DNA of 46,291 nt. It comes from Paraglomus brasilianum. Lineage: Eukaryota. The position numbers were made by a program, and so were the translations under genes. This document shows positions 9,926 to 35,173 of this stretch, one piece after another (the stretch's first letter is position 1; every line of letters begins with the position of its first letter). The DNA lies in contig CAJVPI010000173.1 of NCBI GenBank assembly GCA_910592345.1, forward strand, positions 1 through 46,291. The letters are read 5' to 3'. The notes under the pieces were generated by a model. The model searched no databases and was not told where the DNA came from. It saw nothing but the letters and a program-made list of their open reading frames with translations.

Positions 9926-10013
9926 AGTTGGGGACCTGTCTCAGTTCTGGACCGAGACAACTGAGTTCTGGGCTGATCTGAACCAAGACAGATCCCGAAC
10001 TCAGACACAACAT
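9926..10013. mobile_element. Truncated copy of the Ginger-like MITE family
   Basis: Shares GTTGGGACCTGTCTCAGTTC-like sequence, GAGACAACTGAGTTCTGG repeats and the ..CAACA end with 42866-42980 and 29652-29777. Confidence 0.7.
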
Positions 10014-11123: not shown

Positions 11124-11781
11124 ATGGCGACAGAAGATGTAAGCCAAGAATATCCTAACCCGGTACTGGGTATAATTACCACAAGAGGGCACGAATCAGC
11201 TTTAATAAGCTGTGCAAACGGACGAACGTTTGAATTTTCTCTTCCCTCCCCGGCACAGCTTGCTTTGATTTTTGGTGATAAAAAAATACCAAATAATTTC
11301 ATGGTATTCCGCAAACTTTTTCAACAAAGTTTGAGAAAAGATGAAGATCCGTTATGCTTTAAACAGAGGCGGGTTTCAATAATTTCAGGTTGGGCATGGA
11401 GAGCAGGAGATAATTTTGCTCGAAATAAATTCAAGAGGCTTGCCACAGAAGCGAGGCAATATCAAAATCAGGTCGCACCGTCAATGTCAAACCTTCCTTT
11501 GGTTTACAAGTGTGGCGGCTGTGGACTCTATAATAGATTGAGTTCAGATGCTTCAGGTATATTTTTTTATTTGTGATAATATAATACGCAAATATCAATT
11601 AACGCAAGTTTTATGGAGGCTAAAAACTTTCTCTTGCTTTATCTATCATCTAGGAGTATGTATGGGCGTTTCTGAGTTGTTGGTGCCAATACCAGGTATT
11701 CCCGAAGAGTCTTATCAAACGGAGAGTCTCTATCAAAGTGAAGATTTATATCATCAGGTTGTTTACAGACAATCATTATAG
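11124..11781 (+). CDS. Divergent HMG-box protein type A2 with C-terminal CxxC; exons 11124-11556, 11654-11781; ~186 aa
   Basis: KIPNNFMVFRKLF...QRRVSIISGWAW...ARNKFKRLA, then YKCGGCG. Colinear with A1 (YPNP, ISCxNGxTF, PAQ). The GT..AG intron at 11557-11653 joins in frame to the 11548-11781 ORF. Confidence 0.82.
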
Positions 11782-13856: not shown

Positions 13857-14655
13857 ATGGCTAATAATCCGTTCCCCAATGGACCCTTGCCTGTTGGCAA
13901 TTCGACCACCGATTTACGCGACTTTTTGGAAAATATGATAGTCAAACTTAATGAAAATGAACGCACATACAGCATAGAATTTAGTCAGAACGTCATCCAA
14001 GTTGCCATTCCTCAGAATTCTTCCAACTTTTCCGATGCCTTGAAGAATTCCAATAGTTTCATACTGTTCAGGACTCTTCTCATGAAGACTCTAAACGGAG
14101 CCAGTTTCGATCGCTGTTTCAACAAGCTGACATATTGTTCCGACATCGCGGGTAAAGCTTGGGGTAAAGCGCCTCCAAAGCTAAAGAAAATCTTTAAAGA
14201 TCTTTCGGACGAAAGTAAACCTTTTAGACAAAGCCAAGCGAGCAGAAAAACAAAAACCCCGGCAAACTCAATTCCCACAAATCGCACTCGCAAGACGACT
14301 ACTCCAGTCGGGGTTGGAGAAGGCCTCGAGTATTCCCATCAACGGAACGAAAATAAGGCCGCAAACTGGATTTCCATAAAATGCACTTGCAAGATGATTA
14401 CCCAACTCGGGTTTGGAGAAGGCTTCGAAGTTGGTAATGGGTTTTTATATTCATGTGGAAAATGTAATCAACCTATTCAGCTGCAAGGTAAAATATGGTT
14501 TGTTATTTGGAATTGTCATTAATGCCTTAGAACTAAAAATTATCTCTTTAGCGGTCATTGCCCCGTTCTCTCACGAAGCTGCACCCGGCCAGTTCGACGA
14601 CGTCATCCACTACGAAGATCAGGTGGAGGAATCGAGTTGGAGCTCTTCAGTATAA
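13857..14655 (+). CDS. Divergent HMG-box protein type B2 with CxC...CxxC; exons 13857-14487, 14552-14655; ~244 aa
   Basis: KNSNSFILFRTLL...CSDIAGKAWGKAPPKLKKIFKDLSDESK, then KCTCK and YSCGKCN. The GTAAAA..TAG intron at 14488-14551 joins in frame to the 14413-14655 ORF. Confidence 0.82.
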
Positions 14656-15531
14656 AACTGGCATCGCGTCGAGAGTTGCTTTTGACGGTTTCGTGTTCTG
14701 TCTATTATAGAACATTGGTACGTTAACGTCACTTTCAGTGTCGTACGGCCCCGCCCGTACATGTGAGTCGTTCGTTTGCGTGTTTTATATATGAGGTTAT
14801 GCTTATATAGTTTATATAAAAGTAAGTAATATGGATCTAATTTATAAGTGAGCATTCATTAAAAAAATTTTAATAGAATTCACGACTATTTGTACGGTTA
14901 GGGATCGTAACCAATTCACCAGTTGGTTATTGCTCCTGGCACTTCTGACCAAATAGGAGCGCTGTAACCTTGCTAATTTTGTTTCATTCGCTAATTTCTT
15001 TCGGGCTTCGTCTTTATCAGCCAGCAAAATGTCCCTTTTTCATGTTTCCTCGCGCTTTCTTTCGCTCTGCCCAAAATCGAGCCTTTTATTGGTTTAGCTG
15101 GACCTGAATCACGTTACCAATTTTTCGTTTTTATTATTATTATTATTATAGGATTTTTATTGGCTGCTTTTACATATACATGACTAAATTAAATCAATAA
15201 AGAAAACTTGGCTTAATGCCTGGTATTCATATAGACGTTACCAATTTTTCGACAGTAAAGTACAAACCTCCCAAATATGGAATATCCAGCACAACGTTTT
15301 AGTCGTTTACATTAACATATTAATATGTGTACAGATCTACGACAATATACTAATAATTATCCTTTATATCGCCATGTTTGTTTGCGTGTTGATAGTGATG
15401 AATAGTTCAATCATTGGCTTCTATATTTGGGTCAAACGTTAAACTTCCTACTAATTACTCTTTCCCGCCGTCCCCAAGGTTCCTTAATAGCAAGTCAAAA
15501 CCCGCTTTTATAAAATGTCAGTTGCAATAAA

Positions 15532-17555
15532 TCAATTTGCCTCAATATGACCTGAGACGAGATTATTAGCAATAGAGGTACCGTCAACGCTAATATCTCT
15601 ATCCCCCACAAAATCCGTTTTGGCCCATTCGGGCAATTCAGTCTCATACTTCCAACCGTCACCTTCATATTTCAAAGCATGTAGCCAAATACAGAGCTGA
15701 TGTGGCAATGGATCATTAAACTTTTGGTTCGCACATTCTTCACAGTAATCTTCGTCCAAACAGGGTGTTTCTTCATCGGCTATTGGAGTACCGCTCGCCT
15801 CATCTTCATCCTGTTCGTCAGCATTGTCGTTCTCGCTTATAATGAGCTTTTTGCCGTTTGCTAAATTCGCCTCCTCGCCGGTTTCCGGTTTTATTACGAC
15901 GGCCTTTTCTTCGTCGCCCAACCCTTCTTGCATAAAATACTCGATTACTTTCGCGGTGGTTTCCTGATCAAACCCTCCCTTGCCTTTAGATGGACCCCAT
16001 GCACTTGGGTGATTATATAATGGATCATTAGCAATAGGATATCCAAGGTACTGGAGATGTACACGTATTTGATGAGTACGGCCTGTTATCGGTTTACCTG
16101 AAAAAAAGAGTCAACGAATTAAGGCAAGTAGTATAGGAAAAGTTGGACGAGCGGTTATCAGACGCTTTACGCTTTAAACTGAATACGCCACATTTACGTA
16201 ACATCCATCATAAAGGATACATCTGACAACGGAAGTGTGTCCATTGTAATGCATTCTGTTGAAAACAGTCGTGCTAGGCTTTCCATCTGAACTGACCGAA
16301 TTTAATCCTAGTTTATGAGAAACGCATTTGATTGGTTGGTCGCATATAATCTCTTCGCTGATTGAGGGACAAGGCTGGAGAAATTGATATCATTTACGAT
16401 TGTCGAAGCAACGGATTATGCAAGGCAATGGGTAATACATCTGATATTCTTACATCGGGAATTCGCCCAATACTCGGCACACGTACTCTTTCTGGACGTT
16501 TCGGGAGCGTATCTGTTCTTCCAATTCTCGAGCTTTCTGCTTGCTCATTGCGATTAGCGTTATTCCCGAGGTTAGTCTATCTAGTCTATTAATTGCTGAT
16601 AAAGAGAGTGTGTGAGTTACAAGTCGCGTGTTGAATTATACTCAAACATGACTCACTATGAAAAGCATCTAACTGATGTTCCTTGCGTAAGATGTGCAGG
16701 ACGGTATTGTAGAGATATCTCCCACTGGGATGAACCTAAACGCAAGTCGATTGGCCGTCAGCAGTTGAAAAACAAAATATTATCATCGACAGCCGGCATT
16801 AACATGAACCACAATATCCGTTGACTGTAAATTTCAGCGACTTACCGGAATGCTTCCTGGTTTGTTGATGACAATAAGATCATCTTTCCTGCAAATAATC
16901 TTGATCTCCTCTGCAGTGACGGGTGGCTCATGTCTATGGATCTTATGAGTGATAAGGTCTTGATTCCTTAAAATCGTGTCTGTTGAGACTGTCTGCTTGT
17001 TGACAGTTATCGAGCCTCTTTTTATTGCTCGTGCCTTCAATAGGTGAACGACATATTATTTATTAAGACGTTACGTACGAAAGCAACGTAAGAATTACCA
17101 CCATATCGTCATCATTCTTATGTACATAATATTGCGGCGAGCGATCTCTGAACTCAGTAGTGAATACATCTAATATGGTCCTCCCGATCCACCGTTTTTT
17201 TGTAAAAGTTCGATATTCGTAATAATACGGCTTCACTTTACGAAGATCTATAAATAAAAAATATTACAAATATTAATAATAACAACAAAGATATTCGTGT
17301 ATAACCCATTAGAAAATGCTTGATAACATTTGACTGAGTATAAACCAAGCTACCGTTTTCAAAGTGATATTCGACTTCATCTATGCTACAGATATCCGAA
17401 ATGTCTTTACGATTAAGTTGTTTATTGGAAGAAATTCTTAACTTCTTTCTAACTTCATGTTCAGAGGCATGATATCTGTGCTTCGACGGAACAGTAATAG
17501 TGTCTTTGACAAGGACGATAGCATTGTTGTCTATTGCGGAGGTATTAGAACTCAT
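15532..17555 (-). CDS. RluA-family pseudouridine synthase (Pus9/Rib2/RPUSD2-like), 7 exons: 17555-17354, 17247-17126, 17034-16846, 16735-16657, 16595-16454, 16357-16221, 16097-15532; ~478 aa
   Basis: The spliced product contains [29 protein letters not shown], catalytic [33 protein letters not shown] and IWLHALKY. All six introns are GT-AG and preserve frame. Confidence 0.95.
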
Positions 17556-17561
17556 TTAAGG

Positions 17562-17617
17562 TGAAAATTTAAGGAAAAAGTGAAATTTTTTCATTTCGTC
17601 GTCGTTCACGTGATGAG
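17562..17617. promoter_or_regulatory. Candidate RRPE-like and PAC-like motifs plus an E-box upstream of the pseudouridine synthase
   Basis: TGAAAATTT at 17562, TGAAATTTTTTCA at 17581, CACGTG at 17607 overlapping GATGAG at 17612. Confidence 0.35.
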
Positions 17618-18501
17618 GTATGCTAAATCATTGGCCAGTTGCTGTTGCTTCCATGGATGTCATTGCAAACGGAAAACGTAACAGTTACTACTAATGCATG
17701 CGGCTTGAATATGTCAAAGTCTGCGAAAATTCTGCTGTAATATTCTAACTATGGTTACGATATCAGTATTGCATCAACCTTGTCCCAGTCCAATAAAGTT
17801 CTCGTTATCCAATGCGTGAAGTTCATATGACCTAGCTATACGATTGGCTGATATTTATGGAATGTAATTAGTAAAGAACAATGGTCGAGTGTAAATATAA
17901 GCTTAGAGATTAGTAAAAAGTTTTCAGTTTAATGACGCTCAAACAAAAATAATAAAATAATAAAACAATCAGCAGAGTTGTCATATACGCGAAAAGAAAC
18001 CTGAAATGCAATAATTAAGTAAATCATAAACATCAATGTTAGCTCACGACATTGGTATGCCTAATGAGAATGTAAAATATAAAACATTGGTGTTAGTTTC
18101 TGTGACTTGTTCTCAAGAGAATGTTTCATCATACTAGATAATATAATTATATTTGGATATGTGTTCAAAGTTTTTATAACAACAGATTAAACCAAAAGTA
18201 AATGTTAATAATGCATGCATGCATACATGCCTTTGAAAATGTGTTATAATTATATATTTTTGATAGGCTATTGAAACAAATTCAGTTACAGGTTTAGTTA
18301 ATTGTCATAAAAGCTATCAAGTAAAAAAGATATGAAAACAGTTCAAAGAAATAAATCATGTGCATGTTAATTATAAGCTATATATTTTTCCTTATTGTTA
18401 ATATAACGTATCTTATTCTAAAATGTTATAAAATAACGCTCTCCCTACAAGCATATAATCAATTTAATCATAGACCATAATTTCCTCTTTCCATTCCCTT
18501 C

Positions 18502-18972
18502 TCACCCTCTTCTTCTCCCCCTTCTACCAATATTATTTCTCCTCCTCCTCTCACTTCTCCTTTCCTCCTGAACAACCGGATCTTCATATACCCAGTCACT
18601 CTCTCTCACCATCCTGTTCCTTGTCACAAGTTCTCTCAATTGTTCCAATGCACGCCGTTCAGTCTCTGGTACTTGGTTCCACATCTTTGATGCTAACCTG
18701 GACAGTCTACTCATGTCTAACTGGTAGAGATCGCAATCGGAATGTTCACAAGAAGGCAACAAATCGCGATATTTCTCGGCCCACCGTCGTATGATAACAA
18801 ACCTATTGGGACAAATGTTGCCTCGACAAGAAGATAGAACGTCTTGGATTGTCCAGTTGGAGGTGGAGTAGCCCCAATGGGGCCAAATAACTGAATGAGA
18901 ACATCTAGCCGTTGTAATAACAATTTCTACCAGAGGGTGGTCTATCCTGAGAGATACTCGAGCCTGGGCCAT
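18502..18972 (-). CDS. Divergent HMG-box protein type Z1 with Cys-rich loop insertion and Arg-rich tail, 156 aa
   Basis: CPNRFVIIRR...LPSCEHSDCDLY..DMSRLSRLASKMWNQVPETERRALEQLRE; upstream RCSH; C-terminal RRRRNNIGRRGRRRG. Confidence 0.82.
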   Translation of the reverse strand: MAQARVSLRIDHPLVEIVITTARCSHSVIWPHWGYSTSNWTIQDVLSSCRGNICPNRFVIIRRWAEKYRDLLPSCEHSDCDLYQLDMSRLSRLASKMWNQVPETERRALEQLRELVTRNRMVRESDWVYEDPVVQEERRSERRRRNNIGRRGRRRG

Positions 18973-21090
18973 GCTTTTTGTCGATAATAAATGATTGGGA
19001 GTGTATAGCGTATGGATTGGTAGTGTGTTGTTTTTACCGTTCCTTGTTTTTTGTCTTATTTAATTTTATATACCGTAGAAAACCTTTCAGCGGTTTCCGC
19101 GGTGCGAAAATAATAAACCGCGACTCTTGTTTTCCTTTGGCTTGCTAAAATTGTAGGCAAAATATAAATCAGAGAAAAGGGCGAGCTCTTCTATTTATCT
19201 AAAACATGAAAATGAGAGGGTAATAACGATATCTTTCTTTAAAAAGAGACAAGCACATACCTTCAATTCTATTTCCGTCGAAGTCCGTCATCCGCACACC
19301 AATCAGAAACTTTTTTTGAGATTACGTATTATTGGATGCTAATCAAAACTCGGTTGCGGGCGAATCGTATAATGGGTGGCGTTTTAAGTAGAAATTTAGA
19401 GTTTCGCCGAAGTATAAATATAGTTATTAGTTTAGATTTACCAATATTGTTGTTAGCCTGTTCTCTCGTTATTAATTAAATTATCTCACTCACGCAGTTT
19501 ATTTGCGATGCTATTCATGTCCATATTTGACGCTTTGTTACAATTGCAAACAAAAGAAAGCAATATTATTAATCGTTTGCATGGCAAATGTTGTTGCGGA
19601 AAAATGCAAGGAGTTGCATTCCGGCTTATATTTAACAATTGCGGGGCGTTGTGACGTAAAGCCTTGGATGCTGAGCCCCATCTTAATAAGTAACACGTCG
19701 AAATAACATTCGCCAATCGGAGAGATTTGTTAGAAATGCGATGTGACATAATACCTGATAGCCCAGCGGTTGTCTTATATCACAAAGCGTCGAATGCGCC
19801 GAACATCATTGTTTGTAAAGTTTGTATTCTTATGTAATAAAAATCGGCTGTAAGTCATCGACAGTGGTCATCGACAGTGCGCCCATGCGTAATTACGTCT
19901 CTTTACGCAATATTAAAGAAAAAGAAGCAATTGAAAAGCACGTTTGTAATTGTAGATTATCATTTAATAATGTGACATAATCGGCAAAGTAAGGGGCTTA
20001 CACAACGCACAATTGACTTTTAACTTGTGTAGCGAAAAATTAGGAAAATAAAGAGAAACTATTTATATGTATTGTGATCGAGCCAAATGCGAAAAAAAAG
20101 GAAGATCAAGTTGTTTACAAGATTAAAGGTGCTTTGACCAATAGTACGAAAACTTAACCCATGTTTATATTATGCCGAGCAATTGCAAATATTGTTTCGT
20201 TTTTATATGCAATGCCTATATTTAATAGAGTAATGCACGATAACCTAAATTTATTTATCAGCACCCTTTGATTATTAATTTACTCTTTGTAATTTTTTCT
20301 TAAATAGCAACTTAATATTGTTCATCAATGTCGAGCATTATAAAATAGAGTCAGTATTGCTTATCTCGCCATTTACAGTAACACTATATAAATTATTTCT
20401 TCTCAACGATAGGTCCGAATGTGCGATAACTTTATTTTTCTGCTATTTGAGAAATAATTTACAATGTTTCCTTACCGGGTTAGCGAATTAGCATCACTTC
20501 GCATCTATGTTTATGTTTATCTGTGTTACATCTATATGCAATTTTCATTATCATTGTTTCTCATTCAAATTACCCCTGATTGAAGGAGAGAGAGCGATCA
20601 GATGTCTTTTTTGTACAGACACACGATATTAATAAGTAATTATTAAATAAGCCATGGGGTCTGACAAATAATATGTAAGTCATGACGGATTTTTGTCATT
20701 TGATGTAATGCAGGTGCATCGGGGTTACCGAATGTATCTCTCAAACAATAATATAGTATTGTTTGATGCATCAATCGTACTACATATACCAAAATAGTTT
20801 TTCTTCTTTCAATACCTTGCAATTGTTTGGCCTTTCGCGATGCATCTCTCCGCTTGTTTAGGAACGCGAAACCAATTTTGGAAAAAGTAACGTGTGTAAC
20901 GTAATCACATGATACAGTCGTAGCACTGACGTTGCTTGTATAACTTGACAAACGTAATACTGTAATATATCAACTATTACTACTATTCACTTAGCACCCA
21001 TCACTAGTGACACACACTCTTTTAATATAGACATAACAATCTCATTTCTCCTTTCTCCTTTCTCCTTTCTCCCACATTTCTTTATCAGAG

Positions 21091-21503
21091 ATGGTTGAAC
21101 ATGTAGACTTTATTCCAATTATTGCCTCATACATCAACAACACAATACCACCCTTGCTTTCGCCCAGAGAGTACGCTTATACCATGTTTCACATATTTTG
21201 TCCACCATTTACTGTAATCTACACAGCTTACCTAATCTTTGTAATCTGTCACTGAACTCGGCGATTGATCTTAACGACAATCAGAGTAAATCTAAACCTT
21301 ATGGAATTACAATGAGACAGTGGAAAGACGAAAATGGAAATTACGAACAAAAGCTGAGTTCTGAATGGAACAGCCTATGTAACGAAATCGAATGTGCTCA
21401 CAAGGTGAAGGGTTTTTCCATTGATACACATGACACATATGTATATCAATTTTGTCTTACAGTATTACGCTATCAATATTTCCGGTGCAATTTGATTCGC
21501 TGA
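21091..21503 (+). pseudogene. Possible decayed HMG-like gene
   Basis: ATG at 21091 gives MVEHVDFIPIIASYINNTIPPLLSPREYAY... which stops early. An overlapping frame gives ITMRQWKDENGNYEQKLSSEWNSLCNEIECAHK, weakly like HMG helices 2-3. Confidence 0.25.
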
Positions 21504-21969
21504 TTGCATTTCAATACAACATATAATTATTTCAAAGGATGTGTAGTTATTCCGAGAGGATACGGTTTTCGGAGATACTGGAGAATAAGCGCTTATACCT
21601 TCGATATGCCTATTTTGGCCGATAATAAACTCATTCATGGTATAATCACGGGCATCGACGTGCATCTGTAGTCAAATGCAACAGTAATGACGAGATCGAA
21701 ATACTCAAAGATTAACACATAAATATTCCCGACCTACATTTATTATGATAACCTTATCAATTATACTTATCTTATCGGTTTACAGCTTGTCAGTTACATA
21801 ATTTACCAAAAAAAGAATTATATATTTTTAGTATTCTATGTTCACTATCTTAATTTGTGACATAATCCATAAAAGTTGAAAACTCGTCCCAACAAAAGAA
21901 ATCTTTGGCGAAGTAATCGGCGAACTAAACGGCGTACCAATCGGCGTACTAACAGCCGAGCACAATATG

Positions 21970-23034
21970 TTATAAATATTGACCTTTAGTCGAGTCGTTA
22001 ATACAAAAGTACTCTCTCTCCATACCGCCTTCAACATTGCCCATTATGATGTTGTTTATCGTGTTGTTATATCCAATATTATGCCTAATCTCTTCCGTTC
22101 CTCGTCTTTCTGCAAGAAAATTTCCATTGGTAGAATGAAAAAAACCACCGCTCTCTATTTGCATTTCGTTATAATCCTGAACAGAAGGCAAGCCCATACT
22201 TTCTCTTGTTTCCTCGTTTACGTTCCATTGTATTGGCTGGTGAGTCAGCGCGCTAAAACCAGACAAACACGTAAATGGTTCTTGATAAATTATCGGTGAG
22301 GTTGATGGAAGAGAAGTATGAACAAATGGATTAGACATGTCGTGATGATGCATTTGCGTTGTACGAACATATGCGGCGTGTTGGACATATGGAGGAGGCG
22401 AGTTTACTGACTGATATACAATTGGTGTGCTTGGCGGTAGATGCGATGGCACGGCATGCATTGCCGTAGACAGTTCGTCGTTGCACGTAGTGTTAATAAA
22501 AACATTATTTTTGTCGCTTGTAATTTCCGTTGTGCTCTCTTTATTTCCAATATTGCTCACTTCACTTGCCTCTAGTTTCTCTTCATTTCCGCTAGTCTTG
22601 TCCGTTGTTGCTGCTTCACCCTTTTTGACTTTTCGTACTCTCCCATTACCACCATCTTCTCTGATAAATGAATTAATATTAACAGGTATCTGTTTTTGTA
22701 CTTCTTCCCTCCATTTATCCAAGTGTTTTTTAACACGCTTATTAGCATAATACCAGATTTTTGCTGCAAGCTTTGAAATGTTTCCTCGGTCGGGATTATA
22801 CAAGGTACAAGCCTTGTGCACACAACGAGGCAAGTGCTCTTTGAAAGCTTGAAGAGAAACACGAATAACCAGAAATCTGTTTAAAGCGACTTGCTTATGG
22901 CAGCGTGAAGCCAGTTCCGAAACAGAGAGTATCGGAAAAGCGAAAGTGTGTACTGTAGACTCACACGGTACGGTTATTTGAAGGTTGGCGTTAGGAAGTA
23001 GGGAACAGCAATATCGATTGTCGTGTGAACACAT
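21970..23034 (-). CDS. Divergent HMG-box protein type Z2 with Cys-rich loop insertion, ~354 aa
   Basis: ALNRFLVIRVSL...LPRCVHKACTLYNPDRGNISKLAAKIWYYANKRVKKHLDKWRE, followed by a Pro/Ser/His-rich tail. First ATG is at 23034 (MCSHDNRYCC). Confidence 0.82.
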   Translation of the reverse strand: MCSHDNRYCCSLLPNANLQITVPCESTVHTFAFPILSVSELASRCHKQVALNRFLVIRVSLQAFKEHLPRCVHKACTLYNPDRGNISKLAAKIWYYANKRVKKHLDKWREEVQKQIPVNINSFIREDGGNGRVRKVKKGEAATTDKTSGNEEKLEASEVSNIGNKESTTEITSDKNNVFINTTCNDELSTAMHAVPSHLPPSTPIVYQSVNSPPPYVQHAAYVRTTQMHHHDMSNPFVHTSLPSTSPIIYQEPFTCLSGFSALTHQPIQWNVNEETRESMGLPSVQDYNEMQIESGGFFHSTNGNFLAERRGTEEIRHNIGYNNTINNIIMGNVEGGMEREYFCINDSTKGQYL

Positions 23035-23794
23035 ATTAACGGAGAAGTAATAAAGAGAGGTATTTGCCACTAAAAATATACAAGAGTTCAATAGTCCTAG
23101 AGACGGATGTAAAGGAGGTAGGAAGGAAAATGGTATATTGGAATTTATAGTCCGTAGTTTATATTTAAAGAAAGGATAACGTTTTAATAGTAAACCTTAA
23201 ATGAAAATAAGACGTTTTTATTTTGAACAAGTCAAAAGTGTTAATAAATCATATCAGCTCATAAACCCAAGAATTAACTCTTAGTCGTAAGGTTTTTTTC
23301 CCGCTTCTGTATTATCCACGGAATAGTTTTGCGTAGAGCAAAAGTAAGCTCTCAGGAATCCGGACTTCTAATATGACTATACGCGAAATATGTTGTCCAA
23401 CCGCACTGGGTATCAGATGAGTGTACCAAAAATCAGGATTTGAATCGGGTGCTAAAGTTAACGCTTGATCCGCAGATAAGGGGGAGGGGGGAAGGTAGAA
23501 TGCTGCGCGTAGAGTAAGTAGTATCGTATGTTGGAAGCATCACGTGGAAACTAGTGATATAACGATAAGTACTATGTTTTGAGAGATTCCAAAGCAAATG
23601 AAATATATTAACCTTCTATAGAAATATTCTGTCATTGACCCATTTGATGATTCTATGTTCTTGTTTTGTTGCTATCACCGCGTGTTACCCGCGTGGCTGC
23701 GCTTTCGGGATCATTAAGGATCGAGCTATTTGTGCATATATTTACCTATTGCATGCTTTCAGTTCTGTAATTCGTGAACGATTACTCGGTAAAC

Positions 23795-24645
23795 ATGGCC
23801 AAGACGGAATTTGAGAAGTTATAGAAGGAAGATGTTCTCGTACGAGCAAAAGTTGATTCCATTCCCACATGGAAGGTAAATAACGGCCCAAAAATCAGTG
23901 ATAAGATTGTTAACATCGTTAGAGAAGATTTTCATTTGTTCATTAGTGGTCATTGTTTTGTCAACAATTACTATTGTCAGTTTGTGGTGCTATCGGATTG
24001 TCCAGAAAAAACTGGTATGATTTGCTATCGCAGTTCGTTGACTGCGCCGGCAACGAAGACAAGCAGTTCGGCGTTCTTATGTTTGTTTTGTACTAAGCAT
24101 TTGGGCTAGACCCAATTTGTCAGCCAAAGTCTCATGATCATTTCAGGGTTCCTGTATTAATCAATAGCGATGAATACAATTGATAATATAAAAAAGACCA
24201 GCCCTGATGCATGCCATATAAGGACTAATTGCTTTGCAAAAAATTTTTTTACACCTTCTATTACATAAAAAGTGCTGACATCATGTAATACATTTTATTT
24301 GGTTCTTTATCATTCCCGTTTGATCCATATTAGTCTTCGTGCATAGTAAATGCCCAATTCTACAAATAATGTTCTACCACTCGTCATATTTTCAAAAATC
24401 AAATGACGTACGATGATTATTTTTAGAACTGTTGCACAATAAAATATGTGACAGTCGCAGTACGCACAATAAAAGTGAACCAAAGTGGGAAAGATATCCC
24501 ATTTCACATCGACTTGTGGAAATATGGCGAAAGTGAACACGGTTTTGGTAAGAGCGAAAACGCAGTGGAACAGGCGCTGCAAATGCTAAATGATTTATGC
24601 GGTCTTACATTAACCTGGCTACAAAATTATCTGAACAACAATTAA
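23795..24645 (+). pseudogene. Possible decayed coding sequence of unknown family
   Basis: Protein-like frames broken by stops (MAKTEFEKL*KEDVLVRAKVDSIPTWKVNNG...; TVAVRTIKVNQSGKDIPFHIDLWKYGE...). No family recognised. Confidence 0.25.
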
Positions 24646-26491
24646 AGCCTCATTGTTGTAATATTCCTAATATTTCACGTCCATTAAGGTTGTTTAATTA
24701 AATATTATTCATAACCGATCGACTCTTGATGAAGTAATCGTTATACAGACTATGTTTGATCTTACCCATTTATGTTACCGTTCTCGGGACATAGGGAGAG
24801 TACAATATATCGAGTGCATAAATGTTATGTCCAATCGCGCACAATGGAACCGCCACTATATCATTGAGTGGCTTGTGTGACCCGTTTTTTAATTTGTACA
24901 GTGGCTAATTGCAAAGTGGTACTACTATTTAATGTGTTACTTAGAAAACTTAAAAAATTTAATGACTGGAGACGTTTGAATCAGACCACCAACATTCCTG
25001 GCAGCGGTCGGGTATGCATGAATTGCGGCTCTGGTGGGGTACTTAACTGTCTTACTGACTGGTATATTATTCTTTTAGAAATCAGCATCTCTTACAGCCA
25101 GCGAATTAAATTTAGAAAAAGCACTCTACAATTTGACAGCACCAATTATGTACCAATTAACGCTCATAATAATAACGCTAAAAAGTCGCTGTGTAAATTC
25201 ACGTACATATTCTACATGCATACGTCTTTGTCTGCATTGGTTACATACACTATGAAGTCTACGGAAAGAGGAAAATCGGCTGTCTTGTCTATATTTTGCG
25301 TTTCACGGTAGGCAGGGCGTCGAATGTCAAATGCGTAAGCGGCAATAGTTTGGCCACTATAGTAACAAGAATTAATAATAATAATAATAATGATAATGAT
25401 GATAATAAAGTCAACATGACACGATAATATAAACGAGTAAAGAGCACTAGTATATTGTCATTTATCTATTTGTAAACTTTGTAACAAAAAATTTGTTAAA
25501 CTAATAAATATATTTGAGTATATAGTAGCATATTTGTGTCAAGTCTAGAATCGTTTGATGAAAATATATCCTGGTCAGTAAGCTTTTTTTTTTTTCTGAA
25601 AAATACATTGTGTATTTATTGTCAACCATCAAAGTAAAAAAAAAATGGTTTCCTTACTAATAATGTAGTTATGTTCAAAGCCGTTTTCCTTAATAATTAT
25701 GTTTAAAATAGATTCTTTTGTTTGGAGCGGTTTAAAATAATGAGATTAGTCTGTTCAATATCTACATCTATTTTTTGAGCATTGTACACATTTTGGTTCT
25801 TAAATTATTAATTAAACGTACAAATACGTAAAGCAATGCTTGAAGCATTGTCCAGCCATAGTTACAGATAACTGTAACAAAACACACTACGCAGTACTGA
25901 GTAACAAAATTTCCAATTGGTTAAAATAATAATCTATCATATTTCTTTGTGATTTTATTATCCTGTCATTCTGCTGTATTCGTAAACAGTGCAACGCATA
26001 TTATTATGCTCTACATAATGAAAAACGGCCGTAAATTGTAAAATTTAAAAATTATTTTGTTATATGGTACGTATCTAGTATACAGAGATTTAATATTACA
26101 CCGCATAGATTCGGTTCAATATCCAACAATATTTATCCCAACTCATGCAGCTCAAAATGTTCAATGCTTTTTCCTGGTAGCTATTCATTTAACAATTATT
26201 AAGCAGGGCTGAATTGGCTTCGTACTACATTTTAATGAGATCGATATTTTAACAAAGTTGTGCGCAACTTTAATTAAGATGCAAGACACTTACGTTTTCT
26301 GCTTTTAATTAGACACAAGCTTCCTTTGGTCGATAATATTATCTAATGAATATAACACTATGTCGTGTCTCTAATAATACCGAAAGATTAATTTATACGT
26401 AAATTTAAATGTAAACATGGGGAAATTTTTTTCTTACATTTAAAGTCTTCTTATTATATATACAAACGCCCAATATTCACAATTTTACGAC

Positions 26492-27427
26492 TCAAAGTGT
26501 GCTCCGAATATTTGCTGCCTCTATATATTTGTTTATTTCTGCCGCAAGATTTTCTATAGCCTTTTTAGCAGAGTCGGTTTTTCCCTTCCAAGTCTTGCTT
26601 GCGAATTCGCTAATATAACATTGAAAGCCACCATTCCGGAATTCCCTTTTCTTATAATCTAGGTTTTTGGATAAGAGTGCACGGTATACCATAAATGGAT
26701 TAACATGCTTCTTACCCTTTCCCCGCCTTCGCCACACCCTAATTATGTTGCGGATCTCGTTTTCCGACGATGGCAATTCAAAACGAACAGTACAGTCTCC
26801 CCGGACTGCCCAAATTTCGCCACCGATAATATCGAGTTCGGCCTTGTCACTTTCGCTTGAGTGGTGTGTGCGAATGGTGGCATTGTTGGTTGAAACGGTT
26901 GTATTCGTTTCACTATTTTCTACTGGTTCGTTGTTTAAACCAATGTCGTAGATAGTGTGGCTAGGATAATTGTTGATATAGACGTTGTAGCTGTAGCAGT
27001 TGCAGTTGTAATTGTAATTGTTGTGGTTGTAACTGTTGCCATCATAGTCGCTGTTGTCGTTGTAATAAATTGGATACTTTGAAAAGTGGCGAACAAAGTA
27101 GTAAATGTGATTGGGAGTGCAACTGAAAGAGCCATTGTTATCACTGTAGATATAGAAATCTTCGTGGTTGGGATACATGTTGCACCTAGTTATGGACTTC
27201 AATTCCTCCTCGTTCTTCACGTACTGTACAGTATGACTACCATTGTTGCACTCGGAGATGTAATGTAGGCTTTGGCTAAAGGGGTGAGCAATAAAGTAAA
27301 GAGCATTCCCAATGTGACAAGGGTTGGACACGTCGCAATAGTATTTGAAGTCTTCGCCGTTGTTAATGATATGATTTTCATTGTCCAAGTAAGAGCGGAG
27401 ATTGGGATCAGAAATGTGAAATGACAT
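26492..27427 (-). CDS. HMG-box protein with C-terminal HMG box and an internally repeated Tyr/Asn/Cys/His-rich N-terminal region, ~311 aa
   Basis: KKHVNPFMVYRALL...FQCYISEFASKTWKGKTDSAKKAIENLAAEINK, preceded by IWAVRGDCTVRFELPS. Confidence 0.85.
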   Translation of the reverse strand: MSFHISDPNLRSYLDNENHIINNGEDFKYYCDVSNPCHIGNALYFIAHPFSQSLHYISECNNGSHTVQYVKNEEELKSITRCNMYPNHEDFYIYSDNNGSFSCTPNHIYYFVRHFSKYPIYYNDNSDYDGNSYNHNNYNYNCNCYSYNVYINNYPSHTIYDIGLNNEPVENSETNTTVSTNNATIRTHHSSESDKAELDIIGGEIWAVRGDCTVRFELPSSENEIRNIIRVWRRRGKGKKHVNPFMVYRALLSKNLDYKKREFRNGGFQCYISEFASKTWKGKTDSAKKAIENLAAEINKYIEAANIRSTL

Positions 27428-28359
27428 ATTCAATGTGATCAATTTAAATTGTCCTTTTGTAAGCTGTGGACAACAAGTTTAAACAGTGCAATTCAGTACG
27501 AAAGCTTAAATATCCATATGCTATACTTATCGGTATAACTGGGGAGTAAAGTAATGAAAAAAAAACTACTCACCAAATGGTGCGCTCAAAATTAGTTTTG
27601 ATCCATTTGCTTATTATTTAAGTTCGATGTTTGTCTTTATTTAATATTAATATCTTATTTTACTTACTTTTTTGGATGTGTTCGGAAACTCGTATCCGAT
27701 CTCATGACATAAAAACGATACTGCGTGAAGTTGTGCTACTAACTATTTAAATCTTGACAAAAAAATACAATCAACCATAACAAGGTTTAAAAGCGTTATT
27801 CCTAACACTTACAACGGAAACATTCGGGTCTTTCCGGAAAGTCAACCGACGCTGCGGTGGGAAAACCCGATCAGTATTCACCTCTATTCACTAGTTGATT
27901 TGTGTATGTCAACTGGAACAAAGAAGTTGTGTCTAATAGAAGTTAGCGAACTGACTTTTCGACCATTTTAATAAGCAGGATATTTGCAAGAAGAATCAGG
28001 CTAGTCCTAATTTATATCGGAGGCAAAAAATGCTCTGAATTCCAAGATTATCTCAATAAAGATAAGATTCTCATTTGTTTCAGACAGTACGACGACTTGG
28101 CACATTACTGGAACAACAAAGTCCATTGTTGACATTCCTTGAGATTATTTACATATCAGTACATTTGAAGTAAACCCTTTTTTATATTTATTTTACATAA
28201 AAATATACACGCAAGTACTACTACATGGGGTAAGGCGTTCGCACATCAATCAGATACTTCAGTCCAAGCTAATCAAAGATTTATGCTATCAATCAATTAC
28301 TGATGACTTATTAGTATTAGTTATGCAAGCTGACAAATCAAGCAAGGAATGTCGAATTA

Positions 28360-29099
28360 CAGTTCTACCTCAGTTATATCCCCCACGCTTGTATCCCAAC
28401 CTCAGTTATATCCCAGATATATCCCTATCCGTAATCCATTCCTCGTTTATACCCCCCCCTTAATATTAATTATATTAAGCAAATGTATTAACCATATATG
28501 TGTCATTGTATTACACAATAAATCATGTCATCTCTATATGTTAGAACATGTCGATTATTTGCTTCATTTGGTTAGTCACAATTCTCGATACAGGTAAAAA
28601 ATCAAGTCACTAATTCAACGTCGAGACATAAATCAGGCCACATAATAAAATCAGGCCGTAAATCAGGCCGTACATTAAGTCAGGAAATAAATAAAAGACA
28701 GCAATTTCCAAGTTCAAAAATCAAATTACCAATTGTCAGTCTTATTAGTGTTAAACCATTGCTCATCGAAGAAATTCTTCTGACTGAAGATGTCTTACAG
28801 CAGACACAAGCAGATATGGAAGAAAATGTAAGTGAAGGGGATATCCATAAAGGTATGAAGAGAAGCGACGGTCAAGAATTTTTTAGAACAAAGAGAATTT
28901 GCAACAGAAAATGATATTAGATACATGCGCAATATAATTCGTGAATGGTCGAAACATCAAACGTCACTGATAGAATTTATTAACCAATAAAATTGCATTA
29001 TATTATCTATTGAAACGCCATACCTTAGTTATATCCCACCTCAGATATATTCCCAAAAAGCTTGGGTCCCAACATGGGAATATAACTGAGGTAGAACTG
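28360..29099. mobile_element. Non-autonomous Tc1/mariner-pogo-type TIR element, 740 bp
   Basis: TIR CAGTTCTACCTCAGTTATAT at both ends with TA on each side; internal AATCAGGCC repeats. Confidence 0.88.
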
Positions 29100-29651
29100 T
29101 ACATAGAAAGCTGTAACTTTCATAAAGATAAATAACAACTTGAGCAAAATATGCTTAGAAATTTGGCTCCTGCCATGCACCAACTTCATGTTTTACGAAA
29201 CAATGTTAACTGTTGATGCTTGTATGGTGGGGGACACAAGTACGCATCAACCACTTTCAATGCCCACGCATCATTTGGTTTAATCTCTATCGATTTGTTG
29301 AGATCAATTAGTGTCAAGGGGGATCGTTACTAAACATGTCAATGGTAATAAATTTTAAATTTTCTAAAATTGGATCAGGAAGTCTTATGACTTATTTTTT
29401 TGACAGCAAATTCTGGTCTTTTCAATCCCTTCCGATAGCAATCCATAAATCGTTTGCTCTCTCAACAGCGTTAACACTGATGTAGTTGAAAAAATCAAGC
29501 AGCGTCTGTCCATTTTCCTGCGCCGCATTAATGTGGTGTTGTTCTTGACCTTTTTGTATATGTTAATGGACAATTTGATCGGGGGAAATTGCCATGTTTT
29601 GAACCAATATTTTAAACAAGTCTTCAGCCTCATCATTCAATCTATCACCAT

Positions 29652-29777
29652 TGGACTGAGATGGCTGAGTTCTGGGCCGAGACAACTAAAATGTCTGAGT
29701 TCTGGACCGAAACAACTGAGTTCTGGACTGAGATGACCGAGTTCTAGACTAAGATGGTCTCGAACTGAGGTACAACA
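29652..29777. mobile_element. One end of a Ginger-like MITE family member, with ~20-bp subterminal repeats
   Basis: Tandem GAGACAACTGAGTTCTGG(A/G)C-like units ending in GAACTGAGGTACAACA. Confidence 0.7.
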
Positions 29778-30224
29778 TTTTCACTATTCCTGTGTTGTCT
29801 TCTCCAATTTGCATCTTCAATAAAATAATCATCATTAATAACAAAATCAATGGGTACTGTGCTATAAAGAGAAATTTGGCTTTCTCTTTTTCCTAGCAAG
29901 CTCGCGACAGAATTATGTGTGTTTCGTGGTCTACCTATTGTCAAAAAACGAGAAAATTTTGTCTTTTATTCAACAAATGATTTCCTTTTTTGTTAAGGAT
30001 TTAAGAAATCGGCTTGCATTAAGATTAGATTTGCCCAAATAACCGAACTTTGAAAAGTTATATCTCAAGCCACAGGTAATATTTGTCAAATTTCTAAACG
30101 TCAAGTGTTAATGTTTATCAAGAGGAACAAATTGACGGTTTTAAATTTTGAATTATTAATGCAGAAATTCTTGTATTTTCTTTGAAAAGTCTCAATTTTT
30201 GTTTGATGCGTACTTGTGTACATG

Positions 30225-30385
30225 GGCAAACTCGAGAAGTCGGACCTGGCTGGCTGCCCGACTTATCAAGGAAAATCTGACTTACCTAGAGAGAAAAGGG
30301 CGACTTATCGAGTGTCCGACTTAGCAAGCTTACGAATTAGCGTCATCCGATTACACAGTCAACCTCGTTAATCCGAATCCCATAT
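30225..30385. mobile_element. Remnants of pogo-type TIR elements
   Basis: GGCAAACTCGAGAAGTCGG and repeated CGACTTATC motifs related to the 32166 element; TIR-like CAGTCAACCTCGTTAATCCGAA at 30356. Confidence 0.5.
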
Positions 30386-30924
30386 TTCTGGTTCTAATTT
30401 CATTTGTCAATAATAAAATTACCTCGATTATTCGAAATTTTATAATAAATCACTGTAATCCGTAATCCAAATCTAGTTGCGAGAAATGGCATATTAAATA
30501 TTACCCTTTAATCCGAAGATTAAAAATCTCATCAGTTAATAAGCACATATCCGTTATATGGTGTATATGTTTACACATATATCCTACCGCTTATAAATAA
30601 TAAACTACTGGTTTATAATAATAACAATAAAAATCTTTATTTTAATTACTATTTTATTCACAAAAAAAAAAGAAGCCTCATTTGATAAATATCCTTTACA
30701 AAGTGCTTGTTACTTACATATTATATACTAATAATATAGACTTTGCATAAAACTTGTATGTTTTACTAACAAATTGGTAGAAGTTGCCAAACACTTCTGT
30801 CAAAAAGATGTATTTATCACAGACATAAAATAAATGTTATTTTCAAAATAGTGACAGACTCTTGTAGGACATTGCTTCATTTGCCAATGCTCAGTCGTCT
30901 GTGGTAATTTTTTTTTTCGATATA

Positions 30925-31113
30925 CGGTCAACTCTGTTTACACCGAACGGGTTGGCATAGCTCTCTATGTCCTTCCGAAACCGGTATATGGAAAGTTTAT
31001 AAGAGACTCTGGTATAAATAAAGAATTTTCATATGAAACGAACGGTGCGCAAGAATCGGTCCGTCCGGTATAGAGAGATTCCGATACACTTCCTGTATAA
31101 ACAGAGTTGACTG
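30925..31113. mobile_element. pogo-type MITE, 189 bp
   Basis: TA|CGGTCAACTCTGTTTACAC ... GTATAAACAGAGTTGACTG|TA. Confidence 0.85.
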
Positions 31114-32165
31114 TATATAATTGATTACCTGAACAATTTCCACGCAGAATTTTTATCATTAATGTACTTCTCATTTTAGGAGTTGTTTTTTTAATAGTTA
31201 ATCAACCCAGCCATTATCTCCAGTATTCAGCAACAACTGATGCGCGTACAGTAATTAAAACGGACGATAAAAGTGCATGCACTGTTTTGGCCCAGAGCCA
31301 TCGGTAAATATTAAACAGTAATTTAGTAATACTTATGCTTGTTGTGTTTAGTTACCATATTTGTGATAACTACCATGATAATATATAATAAAGTGAGAAA
31401 CTCCACTCGTGTTATTCGATTTAATATATTGATAATATTATAATTGTATGTTAACAGATTGTGTGTAGGCAAAATTTTGGGCGCTTTCCCCGGGAGTTTT
31501 TGTAGTCAACTTTAAGGTCTAATATCAGACACCATATGGATTCAAACAGAAATTGTTTAATAGATACTCTTTTTTTTTTTTTGCGTATATACATATAATT
31601 TATAGAAAATTAAGGCTCGTGAATTTACTAGATACTATTAGTAAATATATCATCTATTATTAACTTCGTTACTCATTGTATCAAGCATGAAACAATCTAG
31701 ATTTTTTATTTAGAATTTCCTTGTCTCCATCAAGGGGTTTGATAATACTGTTACGAGGAACTTTTATCCATAACAAAGTGCTCGCTAAAGTCCAGTTTAA
31801 GGTTGATGTGAAGTCGTCGGGCCGACCAAAACAGTCATGTTATCGAGAGCTCATTATAACGAAAATCGTTTTATAACAAAGTTTATATTTGAGTAACATT
31901 ACTGTATATCAAGAAATAATTTCTTTATTAACAAATTATTTAAATTACACTATTTTGACTTAGTAAGAGTAACCCACTTATTACTAATCGCACTTCTTCT
32001 ATCATTCATCTTTTTCTTAATTGTCGTGTCGCAAACGAGTCAAAAAAAAATTGTTAATTGGTTTAATTTAATATTAATATGACTATGACGATAAATTGAT
32101 TACCAATTATAGTGATTACACACTTCGTTAAATCGAGATCGTTTTCCTAATCTTGGTTCTACATA

Positions 32166-32991
32166 GGCAGACTCGATAAGTCGGTCGACATATGTAAAGT
32201 CGCGATATGCTGTAAGTCGGCCAACATTCTTTAATGCTATATATGTAAATTACCCTCGATAAGTCGGTCTCACATGATATTCGGAGAATATCATTACTAT
32301 TTCAGTACAGTTGATCATATAAATTTTTACATCTTATTAATTATTATTATACTGTAACGCTAATATAAAATACTTGTGTAAAGATAGGATAGATGCATTT
32401 GTCGATTTCAGGAATATGGAACTGAGATTCCTACTTTAAATATTATCGACTGGGTTGCAATCGCTTATTGATCAAATGGTCGTTGATTATTCCGTCATGA
32501 GAGGAGAAGACCATATTGAAATTGACAGTACTTTAGAAACAAACGATATTCCTAATAATAATGAAATTATTGCAGCCGTCCAAGAAGCTCCTGAACACCT
32601 TTAGCGTTCAATCGTAGGTGTAAAACAAATAAAGAACGCAAAATTCCAAGAAGCTCCTGAGGATAAAGGAGAAGATGACGACAAAAATGAGGTTTTTATG
32701 GTATCTAACAAAGTTGGCTTTAGAAAGTATTCAAAATTTATATGACTATTTGCAGCAGAATAACAAACAGTTTATTATTTCAGGGTTAAGAGACTTAAAA
32801 TGGGAAATTGTAATTGTGAAGAAGCGAACGGATTCTTTGATACAAACGAGCATGGATATTTATTCAGAATAATGGTTTTTCATCTAACGATTCGCTTTCT
32901 ATAAAAATAAATTTTTACTAAATTAGTCACGTGGATTCGATAAGTGGTCTACCAAGCCACAGCCATCCGTGGCCGACTTATCGAGTCTGCC
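32166..32991 (+). mobile_element. Internally deleted pogo/Tigger-type element retaining a decayed transposase C-terminus
   Basis: TIR GGCAGACTCGATAAGTCGG at both ends flanked by TA. The internal frame ALESIQNLYDYLQQ...LRDLKWEI...IQTSMDIY resembles the Tigger/CENP-B-type transposase tail. Confidence 0.82.
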
Positions 32992-33029
32992 TATTGCTAT
33001 GTATATAACTCACACAAAAACATTATTAT

Positions 33030-33151
33030 AGTGTTATATCGCGAGTTGTAATTATCCTCACTATATCGAGCCTAATTTTTATTATAACTGACTTGGTTCC
33101 AGAAAAAACCTCAACATATCAGGGGATCTGTTTATATATCGAGAGTGACTG
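33030..33151. mobile_element. Solo end of a pogo-type TIR element
   Basis: Repeated TATATCG motifs ending in TATATCGAGAGTGACTG|TA. Confidence 0.45.
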
Positions 33152-34014
33152 TAACAAATAATTCACGTGACAAGTTGTCAATTAGGTAATTGTAAGCCGA
33201 TTGGGAGTAAATTAGTTTATCCGGTCACTTTATGACACGATCATAATAAATTTTCTTGTACATAATAATTTATTTATTACACACCACAGCATCGGATCTA
33301 CAGGCTACAGCAAATGTTCAGTCGCTTATTTTATAAGTCACACTATTGTAAGATGGCCATTATCGGAGATTGCCTAATGATTTCTTGGGCAAAAGCCCGA
33401 TCCGTGTGAATTCTTAATCACCATAAGATGTCTACCCACCAATAATAGTATACACAATATTAATATATAAAAGATATTAATACAGAACCGATTGGTTTAA
33501 TATTGAAGGTCTTATTCTACGATTATGTATTGCTTCCAATAATTCACACTAGCGCTTAATGGTTCTACGCTTTTAAAATGTGCAAATAATGGAAATAATA
33601 ATTGGCCGAATTGAAGGGACGATCCCGGGTCCAAGAAAATTCCGACAATTGGCGAGTAACCAAAAATAGTCGTGATATAATAGATTTTGGTCATCCATGG
33701 CCATTTTTAGATATCCATTTATGAGCTTTCATTGAACAGATGCAATAGCTTCGTTGAGAAGTCTTTGACACAACTTGCACCTCGATCAGCATTTATCAGT
33801 ATACTCCTGCATGAACCTTTGTATCATTGAAATTGAGAACAGTTAAGGTATTTGGTTAATTTTACTTTGACCTTTTTTTAATTGAATCATAGCGTCGTCG
33901 TCGAGAAAAAAAGCAAAATAATAAATTAATTAACCAACTAGACATTAATATTAAACCAACAAATGGTTGGCAAGGTCTCACTAACAAAATATGTGAGTTT
34001 TGTTATTAAGTGTT

Positions 34015-35173
34015 TTAAATAGTATGCCGTAAATCTGTCACGAGATCGATTGGCTGATAAAAAGAAGGAACGTTCATAACTGTTGATGGTAGTAATATTT
34101 GTCCATAAGTTGCTGTACGATTGCCCAAAACTTGTGCAGGTGGTCTTATTGGTGAAGTAACATATCCATATTGTGAGTGTGAGGCTTGATAAAGTGGTGG
34201 TCTATGAACAAGGTAGGATAAGTCTTGCTAAAAAGAGAATATAGATATTTCGTATTAATATGAATGAACGTCAATTAAATTATAATTTGGATATTAATTA
34301 ACGCGATGCTTTTATGGATGAACATACAAAAGGTCCAGGTGTAAATTGTGACCAAATACCCGATACATTGCCACCAGACAACACCCTAGTCCGAGTATTG
34401 TCTTGAGACGCATTATTATTAGAAGTATTATTTCCATTTATACCATGCAATTGAAGATTAGGCTGGTGTTGACTTGGTTGATATTGTTGGTAACGTTGTT
34501 GAAACTGCTGAAGCTGCTGATCCTGCTGGTCTTGTTTTTTACTATATTTTGCAGCCGCAACTCTTTCATCAACTTTGTTAGTTTTACTTTCTTCGTTAAT
34601 GCTTCTCATAAGTTCATCGCCTCTTTTTATATAATCTTCACAATTTCCATTAATTTCACCAACCACCTTCACTTTACTCGATCTCTGCTTTCTAACCTTC
34701 TGGATTTGTGATTGATTCTGCTGTCGTCGTCGCTGTATACCGGGATTAACATGTACAAATTTCTCAGCATATTTCGACCACTTGGCCTCAACGGTACTTC
34801 TTAACTTGGCAAAGAAAGTTTTTATTTTGGTATTCTCGAATACTTGACTAGAAAGTTTGGATATTTTTGTCCAGTCAGGCTTGTGTAGCAAGCATTGAGC
34901 AATATGGCATTCTGGCCAGTCTGTTTTGGAATCATTGAGCGACATGCGAAGAAGGAGAAAGCTGTTCGTACAATTATTACCAGAACAACGGCGTATAATG
35001 CTTTCTGAAGAGAGAGGGCGGAGTAATATATCATGCGAGCAAATATTACTCCGGACGTTAATACATATAGAGTCTATCCATATATATGATACTACAGTCT
35101 GTGGGAAATGCGGAGATGGAGGAGATGGAGGAGGAGTAGAGAGTGGTGGAGAGGAAATATTTTCCGTTGTCAT
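34015..35173 (-). CDS. Divergent HMG-box protein type Z3 with Cys-rich loop insertion; exons 35173-34328, 34227-34015; ~352 aa
   Basis: CTNSFLLLRMSL...WPECHIAQCLLHKPDWTKISKLSSQVFENTKIKTFFAKLR, upstream ICSH and a Gln-rich tract. The GTATGT..TTTTTAG intron (34327-34228) joins to an open Pro-rich exon. The helix-2 Trp is replaced by Phe. Confidence 0.78.

Follow-up and report, generated by a model that had tools for sequence, protein, structure and literature searches.

To our knowledge, HMG boxes are regarded as metal-free, and the zinc modules that we know of in HMG proteins (the C-clamp, the YABBY finger and PHD) are separate domains. A 46,291-nucleotide contig of Paraglomus brasilianum, a root-symbiotic (mycorrhizal) fungus, contains ten HMG-like open reading frames (ORFs) (CAJVPI010000173.1, positions 1 to 46,291 of the forward strand; this whole stretch is called the window below). 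Three of them, Z1, Z2 and Z3, are divergent HMG-box paralogs (22-26% identity pairwise between paralogs) which share three cysteines and one histidine, two of these residues in a predicted beta-meander upstream of the box and two in an insertion between helices 1 and 2. We give a probability of roughly two in three to the reading that the four residues bind one structural zinc, in a Cys3His site by which the beta-meander and the helix 1-2 loop are held together. If this is true, a fold that bends DNA and has been studied at length would gain a new architecture, in which metal ligands are found within the helix 1-2 loop.

The expansion of HMG proteins in these fungi is documented. In the available parts of the two sources, more than 100 HMG-box factors are counted in Gigaspora rosea (PMC4771724) and a tandem of five HMG genes is described in Rhizophagus (PMC7490403). 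Both large families of HMG genes and tandem clusters have precedents in these fungi, so that the HMG array of the window is ordinary in itself. Unlike the MATA-type HMG family, the Z1-Z3 group has a 10-12 residue C-x4-C insertion and an upstream histidine which occurs in none of the eight motif-less rows. No metal site appears in the available parts of PMC4771724 or PMC7490403.

A zinc-binding module of an HMG-box protein that can be compared with Z1-Z3 is the C-clamp of TCF/LEF, which aids DNA recognition, according to the available part of PMC4999783. The same source describes it as a domain of its own, on the C-terminal side of the box, in which the cysteines are spaced as Cys-x12-Cys-x2-Cys-x5-Cys. 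In the Z1-Z3 family, on the contrary, two candidate ligands are inside the box and two before it, and one of the four is a histidine. Membership of the C-clamp class was rejected on the spacing, C-x1(or 4)-H-x39..48-C-x4-C, and on its location, which is partly in front of the box and partly within it. The C2C2 finger of YABBY and the CxC of KDZ transposons also occur in proteins where zinc ligands accompany an HMG-like fold on the same chain, the zinc module being a separate domain. A Pfam scan of the 14 rows of our alignment A4 at E 0.5 gives no match to families of the YABBY or KDZ CxC type. The available part of PMC12353581 makes no link between zinc and the HMG-like group of ECOD. A literature search that included zinc in HMG boxes returned no paper on such a subfamily, most subscription papers being outside its coverage.

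Cys23 and Cys45 of HMGB1 are located in the helices of box A. They form a redox pair that can alter the state of the box, according to the available part of PMC7297982. This is a disulfide of two cysteines, with neither a histidine nor an insertion, whereas Z1-Z3 have a four-residue Cys3His set. An HMGB1-type disulfide switch was rejected: the conserved cysteines belong to the meander and to the inserted loop, and the histidine is invariant.

Conservation of the four residues

Z1 (18502..18972, minus strand) is a single-exon ORF of 156 residues. In its predicted structure, residues 5-31 form the beta-meander and residues 42-48 a helix, followed by the HMG box (about residues 50-129) and an Arg-rich tail. 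The upstream half-site, Cys24-x-His26 (18895..18903), is placed by the model at the start of strand 3. The loop half-site, Cys75-x4-Cys80 (18733..18750), is in the insertion between helices 1 and 2, within the peptide LPSCEHSDCDLY (18759-18724). Z2 (21970..23034), also on the minus strand, is a single-exon ORF of 354 residues, with the domain at the N-terminus as in Z1 and a long low-complexity tail. Its upstream half-site is Cys24-x4-His29 (22948..22965), the cysteine being displaced by three residues across a predicted hairpin turn, and its loop half-site is Cys71-x4-Cys76 (22807..22824), in the peptide LPRCVHKACTLY (22833-22798). The first exon of Z3 (34328..35173, 282 codons, same strand) contains the complete domain (about residues 26-141), with Cys45-x-His47 (35033..35041) upstream and Cys89-x4-Cys94 (34892..34909) in the loop peptide WPECHIAQCLLH (34918-34883).

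An initial annotation of the window had quoted these peptides and proposed that the upstream Cys/His pair and the loop C-x4-C form a zinc site, or a redox switch, beside the DNA-bending wedge. All of the quoted peptides are found on the minus strand, within 18502-35173. The upstream Cys/His, a cysteine just before helix 1 and a motif after helix 3 are present in Z1-Z3 as they were quoted. The upstream pair exists in all three paralogs, although its cysteine does not occupy a single column (C-x-H in Z1 and Z3, C-x4-H in Z2). An alignment of Z1, its orthologue P0004, Z2 and Z3 has H26, C49, P73, C75, C80, L82 and D86 (Z1 numbering) as invariant residues.

A pattern written from these same sequences (upstream C-x-H or C-x4-H, 38-50 residues, then C-x4-C-x-[LIF]) matches 3 of the 648 frames without a stop in the window, and these three are Z1-Z3. 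In 300 shuffles (175 frames of at least 60 residues), the mean is 0.037 matches and three are never reached. The motif set of Z1-Z3 is not due to chance; the pattern is derived from the family, hence this result bears on non-randomness only. The spacing from Asn56 to Ser91 is 34-36 in all 12 motif bearers and 22-30 in all eight non-bearers (24 in the Pfam-positive paralog that starts at 2373). Because this spacing separates bearers from non-bearers, the helix 1-2 loop is a true insertion; its size is 10-12 residues.

The search for relatives used a profile seeded with Z1, P0004, Z2 and Z3 against 1.84 billion representatives. At a cut of E 0.001 it returned 13 proteins. Word-indexed protein searches were shallow, with two matches for Z1, two for Z2 and, for alignment A5, five matches that included nothing new. 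Two of the 13 proteins, P0004 and P0014, are full orthologues. The counts exclude three incomplete models of relatives of Z1-Z3, namely P0005 (mis-spliced), P0013 (which starts in the loop) and P0015 (a fragment in a foreign context). Seven distant relatives have the full motif: P0017 and P0020 from Ambispora gerdemannii, P0019, P0022 and P0023 from A. leptoticha, P0016 and P0018. The last of the 13 is P0021, from Geosiphon pyriformis, which has no insertion. Paraglomus belongs to the Paraglomerales and Ambispora to the Archaeosporales, two different orders, and this is the narrow range in which the subfamily is known. Rhizophagus, Gigaspora and Diversispora are not among the six named distant matches, a null that is limited by search depth and poor gene models.

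The ten domains of Z1-Z3 and the seven distant relatives have a mean identity of 25% (range 16-53%). Only five columns are invariant among them: His26, Asn56, Cys75, Cys80 and Ser91. Asn56 and Ser91 are canonical HMG positions. The upstream histidine and the loop C-x4-C are kept in 12 of 12 full-length motif domains. The fourth residue, a cysteine, is also present in all 12 rows, two positions before the histidine in ten and five positions before it in Z2 and P0018. Thus, the family signature is C-x(1 or 4)-H-x(39-48)-C-x4-C-x-[LIF]. The histidine is absent from all eight insertion-less rows, which are P0021 from Geosiphon pyriformis (KAG9288143.1) and the seven motif-less paralogs of the window. 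P0021 is the closest insertion-less relative and lacks both the upstream cysteine and the histidine. It keeps one cysteine in the Cys75 column, and part of it, helices 2-3 with the region that follows, is duplicated internally.

The four candidate ligands chosen by the initial annotation are therefore kept in a wider set that includes a second fungal order. Loss of the residues in more remote homologs had been named there as a reason to abandon the proposal, and the four are present in 7 of 7 distant relatives. Two further elements did not fare as well. Cys49, just before helix 1, is found in none of the seven distant relatives and is found in the motif-less P0021, so it was rejected as a ligand. 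The proline of P-x-C is likewise missing from that column in all seven, where W or K occurs instead, and it is no longer retained as an element of the signature. On the present alignment, the pre-helix cysteine and the proline are Paraglomus features.

HMG-box identity and predicted fold

AlphaFold2 models computed from 14-row alignments have a mean predicted local distance difference test (pLDDT) score of 80 and a predicted template modelling score (pTM) of 0.71 for Z1, and values of 83 and 0.74 for Z3. In both models, three beta-strands and one short helix are followed by the three HMG helices (57-67, 87-100 and 103-119 in Z1). HMG boxes fill 15 of the 16 top rows of a structure search with the Z1 model (LEF1 has Z 5.3, with a root mean square deviation (rmsd) of 3.1 over 73 aligned residues). 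They fill all 12 top rows with the Z3 model (Z 4.7-5.4). Overall, the HMG matches have Z 4.4-5.4 and rmsd 2.4-4.8. Foldseek gave no match of the Z3 model to viral structures at E 0.001; the null results of Foldseek, including the one discussed below for Z1, are no evidence for a new fold.

The sequences point in the same direction. A profile of the ten motif-bearing domains aligns with the Pfam-positive paralog (hhalign, E 1.8e-5) and leaves a gap of 11 residues at the helix 1-2 loop; the best sequence matches in the PDB are HMG boxes (E about 0.1). The conserved core and DNA-face residues are N-x-F-x3-R in helix 1, and S-K and W in helix 2. Among the 12 motif domains, N is kept in 12, F in 8, R in 9, S in 12 and W in 10. 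Pfam HMG_box is reached by the ORF at 2373 alone among the HMG-like ORFs of the window (E 1.8e-8), and PF00505 matches 3 of the 14 rows of A4 (P0017, P0018 and P0021; best E 2.2e-5).

By its predicted fold and its core residues, the domain of Z1-Z3 is an HMG box, as the initial annotation had stated: the three-helix fold of the models, the core residues and the profile match to the Pfam-positive paralog agree on this. The upstream strand region in which that annotation had placed the Cys/His pair is there, but its description had missed the predicted three-stranded beta-meander before the box, in which that pair is located. The special role that it had given to the motif after helix 3 was rejected, this segment being the ordinary C-terminal strand of HMG boxes that pairs with the N-terminal strand (in Z1, residues 53-54 would bridge to 128-129, judging from the DSSP line).

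LEF1 (2lef), SOX2/9/11 and Capicua (6jrp/7m5w) superpose on the three-helix box of the Z1 model with rmsd 2.5-3.1 over 66-73 residues. Z1-Z3 have in common with such sequence-specific boxes the N-x-F..R, S-K and W residues and the C-terminal strand after helix 3. They differ in that the matched chains have a short loop and no meander (the match starts from Z1 residue about 50), with 8-21% identity. No solved chain found in the structure search convincingly spans both the meander and the box. In the Atlas, P0019 of Ambispora is nearest to Mucoromycota MATA-HMG/HMG clusters (score 0.93, 194/256 features), and the structure comparison gives a template modelling (TM) score of 0.56 over residues 3-134. 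This suggests that the N-terminal extension is probably common to other fungal members. The Atlas score of Z1 for the same clusters is 0.87-0.88. The family tree included no reference MAT proteins.

The candidate zinc site and alternative readings

The proposed site would bring together the half-site of the beta-meander and that of the loop, which would meet in space around a Zn2+ ion. It would staple the meander onto the tip of the short arm of the HMG box and fix the start of helix 2. Z1-Z3 would belong to the MATA-type HMG family that has expanded in mycorrhizal fungi and would act in the nucleus, where they would bind DNA in the minor groove; the metal would stabilise a fast-diverging domain rather than act as a sensor of signals. 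The site would give a first structural handle on a part of the unexplained HMG expansion of mycorrhizal fungi.

When three cysteines and one histidine are conserved jointly at 25% identity in a probably nuclear protein, they most often bind structural zinc. The shift of a ligand across a hairpin turn, of the kind observed in Z2, is typical of metal ligands. Judging from sequence conservation, the second order strengthens the central claim of the initial annotation, a zinc site. Both half-sites are in segments with pLDDT 90-94 in the two models (Z1 and Z3). In the DSSP line of Z1, residues 75 and 83 are marked as isolated bridges, as would be the case in a knuckle. The compact alpha/beta chain 6anw can be superposed on residues 1-93 of the Z3 model (69 aligned residues, rmsd 3.0, Z 4.6), which indirectly fits a predicted meander packed on helices 1-2.

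The second residue of the DNA wedge, which we take from SOX and HMGB alignments to be at the start of helix 2, is seven residues past the last cysteine. This position is variable (M, R, W, P, T, F). All 12 motif domains have a hydrophobic first wedge residue in helix 1 (V/L/I/F). The location "beside the DNA-bending wedge" that had been proposed for the site would thus hold for the second wedge residue and does not extend to the first.

Several results weigh against a structural zinc in Z1-Z3. The N-terminal strand of a canonical HMG box begins at the end remote from the helix 1-2 loop, and the convergence of the two half-sites therefore depends on the packing of the meander. The Z-scores of the HMG matches are only middling (5.0-5.6), and Foldseek at E 0.001 finds no match of the Z1 model in the PDB. 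Thus, the HMG assignment rests on sequence and fold agreeing. In the Pfam gathering-score test, Z1-Z3 have no HMG match at E 1, probably because of the insertion and of divergence. The seed profile included the Cys/His columns, which biases the matches to them. Against this bias, the search does not merely return the cysteines of the seed, since Cys49, invariant in the seed, is absent from the seven distant matches. When Cys and His are masked, six of the seven distant relatives score 29.7-43.4 bits, compared to 0.7-11.7 for the seven motif-less paralogs of the window; P0022 scores 18.6 and P0021 24.3 bits. Only three of the seven reach the cut of about 35 bits without Cys/His, so that relatives without the motif may be missed. 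The homolog set is also small (seven distant proteins from about four lineages), the counts of motif rows are not independent because of shared ancestry, and the distant domains are rich in cysteine overall (2.8-6.4%, n=7). One motif change suffices on the tree, but a single origin is poorly supported (61/84; 52% of the bootstrap trees). Lastly, X12, the sole run recorded as RNA, has 0 contigs that match 17700-20900, the only region compared.

A regulatory role of the four residues is unlikely, even if it explains some of the same observations. The Cys3His set would then be a sensor: the loop and the start of helix 2 would shift with zinc occupancy, with oxidation that releases zinc, or with a [2Fe-2S] cluster, and DNA binding or bending would be switched in this way. 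A redox-sensitive cysteine pair does exist in box A of HMGB1 (available part of PMC7297982). The conservation pattern is equally compatible with a sensor, and the loop directly precedes the variable second wedge position. Cys3His ligation of [2Fe-2S] is found in mitoNEET and IscR. However, the C-x-H...C-x4-C spacing is not known from iron-sulfur motifs, structural zinc is in general commoner for such ligand sets, and none of the present results indicates iron or lability. It is likewise improbable that Z1-Z3 represent an ancient mycorrhizal HMG subfamily with a metal- or redox-sensing Cys3His set in the bending wedge, the metal status of which directly switches DNA binding. If the sensing reading were true, these proteins would be candidate zinc- or iron-responsive regulators in fungi from which plants obtain these metals by trade, and they would illustrate a new mode of HMG-box regulation.

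The four residues may also form no shared site. In that case the loop C-x4-C would be joined as a disulfide or would make up a small knuckle of hydrophobic character, and the cysteine and histidine upstream would separately pack or cap the meander. Single cysteines do exist without the full set, as three motif-less rows have one in the Cys75 column, and the motif-less paralogs that start at 6225, 8712 and 11124 also have a cysteine at the end of strand 2. What makes this explanation quite improbable is that the histidine and both loop cysteines are invariant while the adjacent hydrophobic core columns are variable, that none of the eight insertion-less rows has the histidine, and that nuclear proteins rarely have structural disulfides. 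As far as the alignment goes, the invariant histidine argues against a pure disulfide switch.

A loss of DNA binding, the metal-stapled meander and loop being a surface for protein interactions (for example in a dominant-negative partner of HMG paralogs), is very improbable: Z1-Z3 have an eroded version (RGNICPN, HKQVALN, SGNNCTN) of the basic K-R-P N-terminal strand found in sequence-specific HMG boxes and go unrecognised by Pfam, but the Asn, the Phe, the hydrophobic first wedge residue, the Arg, the Ser-Lys and the Trp are retained, basic tails follow the box, and the isoelectric point is near 10 for the Z1 and Z3 ORFs.

Gene models and neighbouring genes

Annotation has concealed the subfamily in three ways: Pfam misses it, the motif is spliced out of P0005, and P0013 starts inside the motif. 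In P0005, the public model of Z1, two introns are taken out (three by another count) and the reading frame changes, so that helix 1 and the motif are lost. Z1 and its metagenome orthologue L001 differ by 26 synonymous and 8 non-synonymous changes, which gives a ratio of non-synonymous to synonymous rates (dN/dS) of 0.069 over 130 codons. In codons 57-85, a stretch inside the second intron of P0005, the ratio is 0.018 (9 synonymous changes, 1 non-synonymous). Z1 is under strong purifying selection, the motif stretch included. The spliced model was rejected on the basis of the ratio within its second intron, and P0005 is probably a mis-annotation of Z1, according to these sequence comparisons. 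Three independent metagenome proteins, P0004, P0007 and P0008, are uninterrupted across the intron stretch of P0005. Two runs which are RNA by guess only, X15 and X19, each have one gapless contig within the Z1 ORF that spans the second intron of P0005; these contigs are weak support at best for an unspliced Z1.

The exact sequence of Z2 is the public protein P0006. Its orthologue in Paraglomus occultum is P0013, the gene model of which begins inside the loop.

The unspliced frame of Z3 (34298-35173) encodes 291 residues. Since the orthologues P0014 and P0024 continue into a downstream exon, we place a second exon of Z3 after a 100-base intron. The putative intron (34228..34327, minus strand) is of the GT-AG type (GTATGT...TTTTAG, phase 0). 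The putative exon 2 (34015..34227) has 70 codons and a stop, and is 80% identical to residues 263-332 of P0014.

In metagenome contigs, 65 pattern matches reduce to four loci. L002 (1181-1349) and L003 (856-1024) contain a 169-base piece which is 91% identical to Z3, from helix 0 to helix 2. The loop cysteines are kept in this piece, the upstream half-site is absent, and the DNA around it is unrelated, near broken Sel1 repeats. From its sequence, it looks like a captured gene fragment.

The seven motif-less HMG-like ORFs of the window extend over 887..27427. Six are on the plus strand, starting at 887, 2373, 6225, 8712, 11124 and 13743, and the seventh, at 26492, is on the minus strand. Four of them (6225-6722, 8712-9275, 11124-11576 and 13743-14522, plus strand) have a common C-terminal C-x2-C-G motif (CIGCG, CNSCG, CGGCG, CGKCN). 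The cysteine at the end of strand 2 in 6225, 8712 and 11124 is in the place of the upstream candidate ligand of Z2. The paralog at 11124 has exactly four cysteines, at the end of strand 2 (30), in the helix 1-2 loop (78) and in the C-terminal pair (130, 133). From these positions, the C-x2-C-G paralogs could have a second metal site in the same corner of the fold, with swapped ligands. Weak profile matches at 38474-38632 and 13409-13615 were rejected as further paralogs, as no frames support them.

The ORF at 887-1318 (plus strand) is truncated: its helix 3 is short, the Asn is replaced by Asp, and its N-terminus has four copies of an ESKYLLP-like repeat. In the paralog at 26492-27427 (minus strand), the box is C-terminal and follows a long N-terminal region, rich in Tyr, Asn, His and Cys, which matches no Pfam family. 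A short-chain dehydrogenase gene (4294-5493, minus strand; adh_short, E 1.9e-38), apparently with more than one exon, is found within the HMG array. The plus-strand and minus-strand HMG groups are divided by the C-terminal exon of a probable RNA pseudouridylate synthase (15532-16110, minus strand; weak Pfam match, E 0.0065). Further along, at 43937-45256 (minus strand), there is a broken DNA transposase of the pogo/Tc5 type, in several frames, with a helix-turn-helix (HTH) region (Brinker/HTH_28), HTH_Tnp_Tc5 and DDE_1 (E 9.4e-11).

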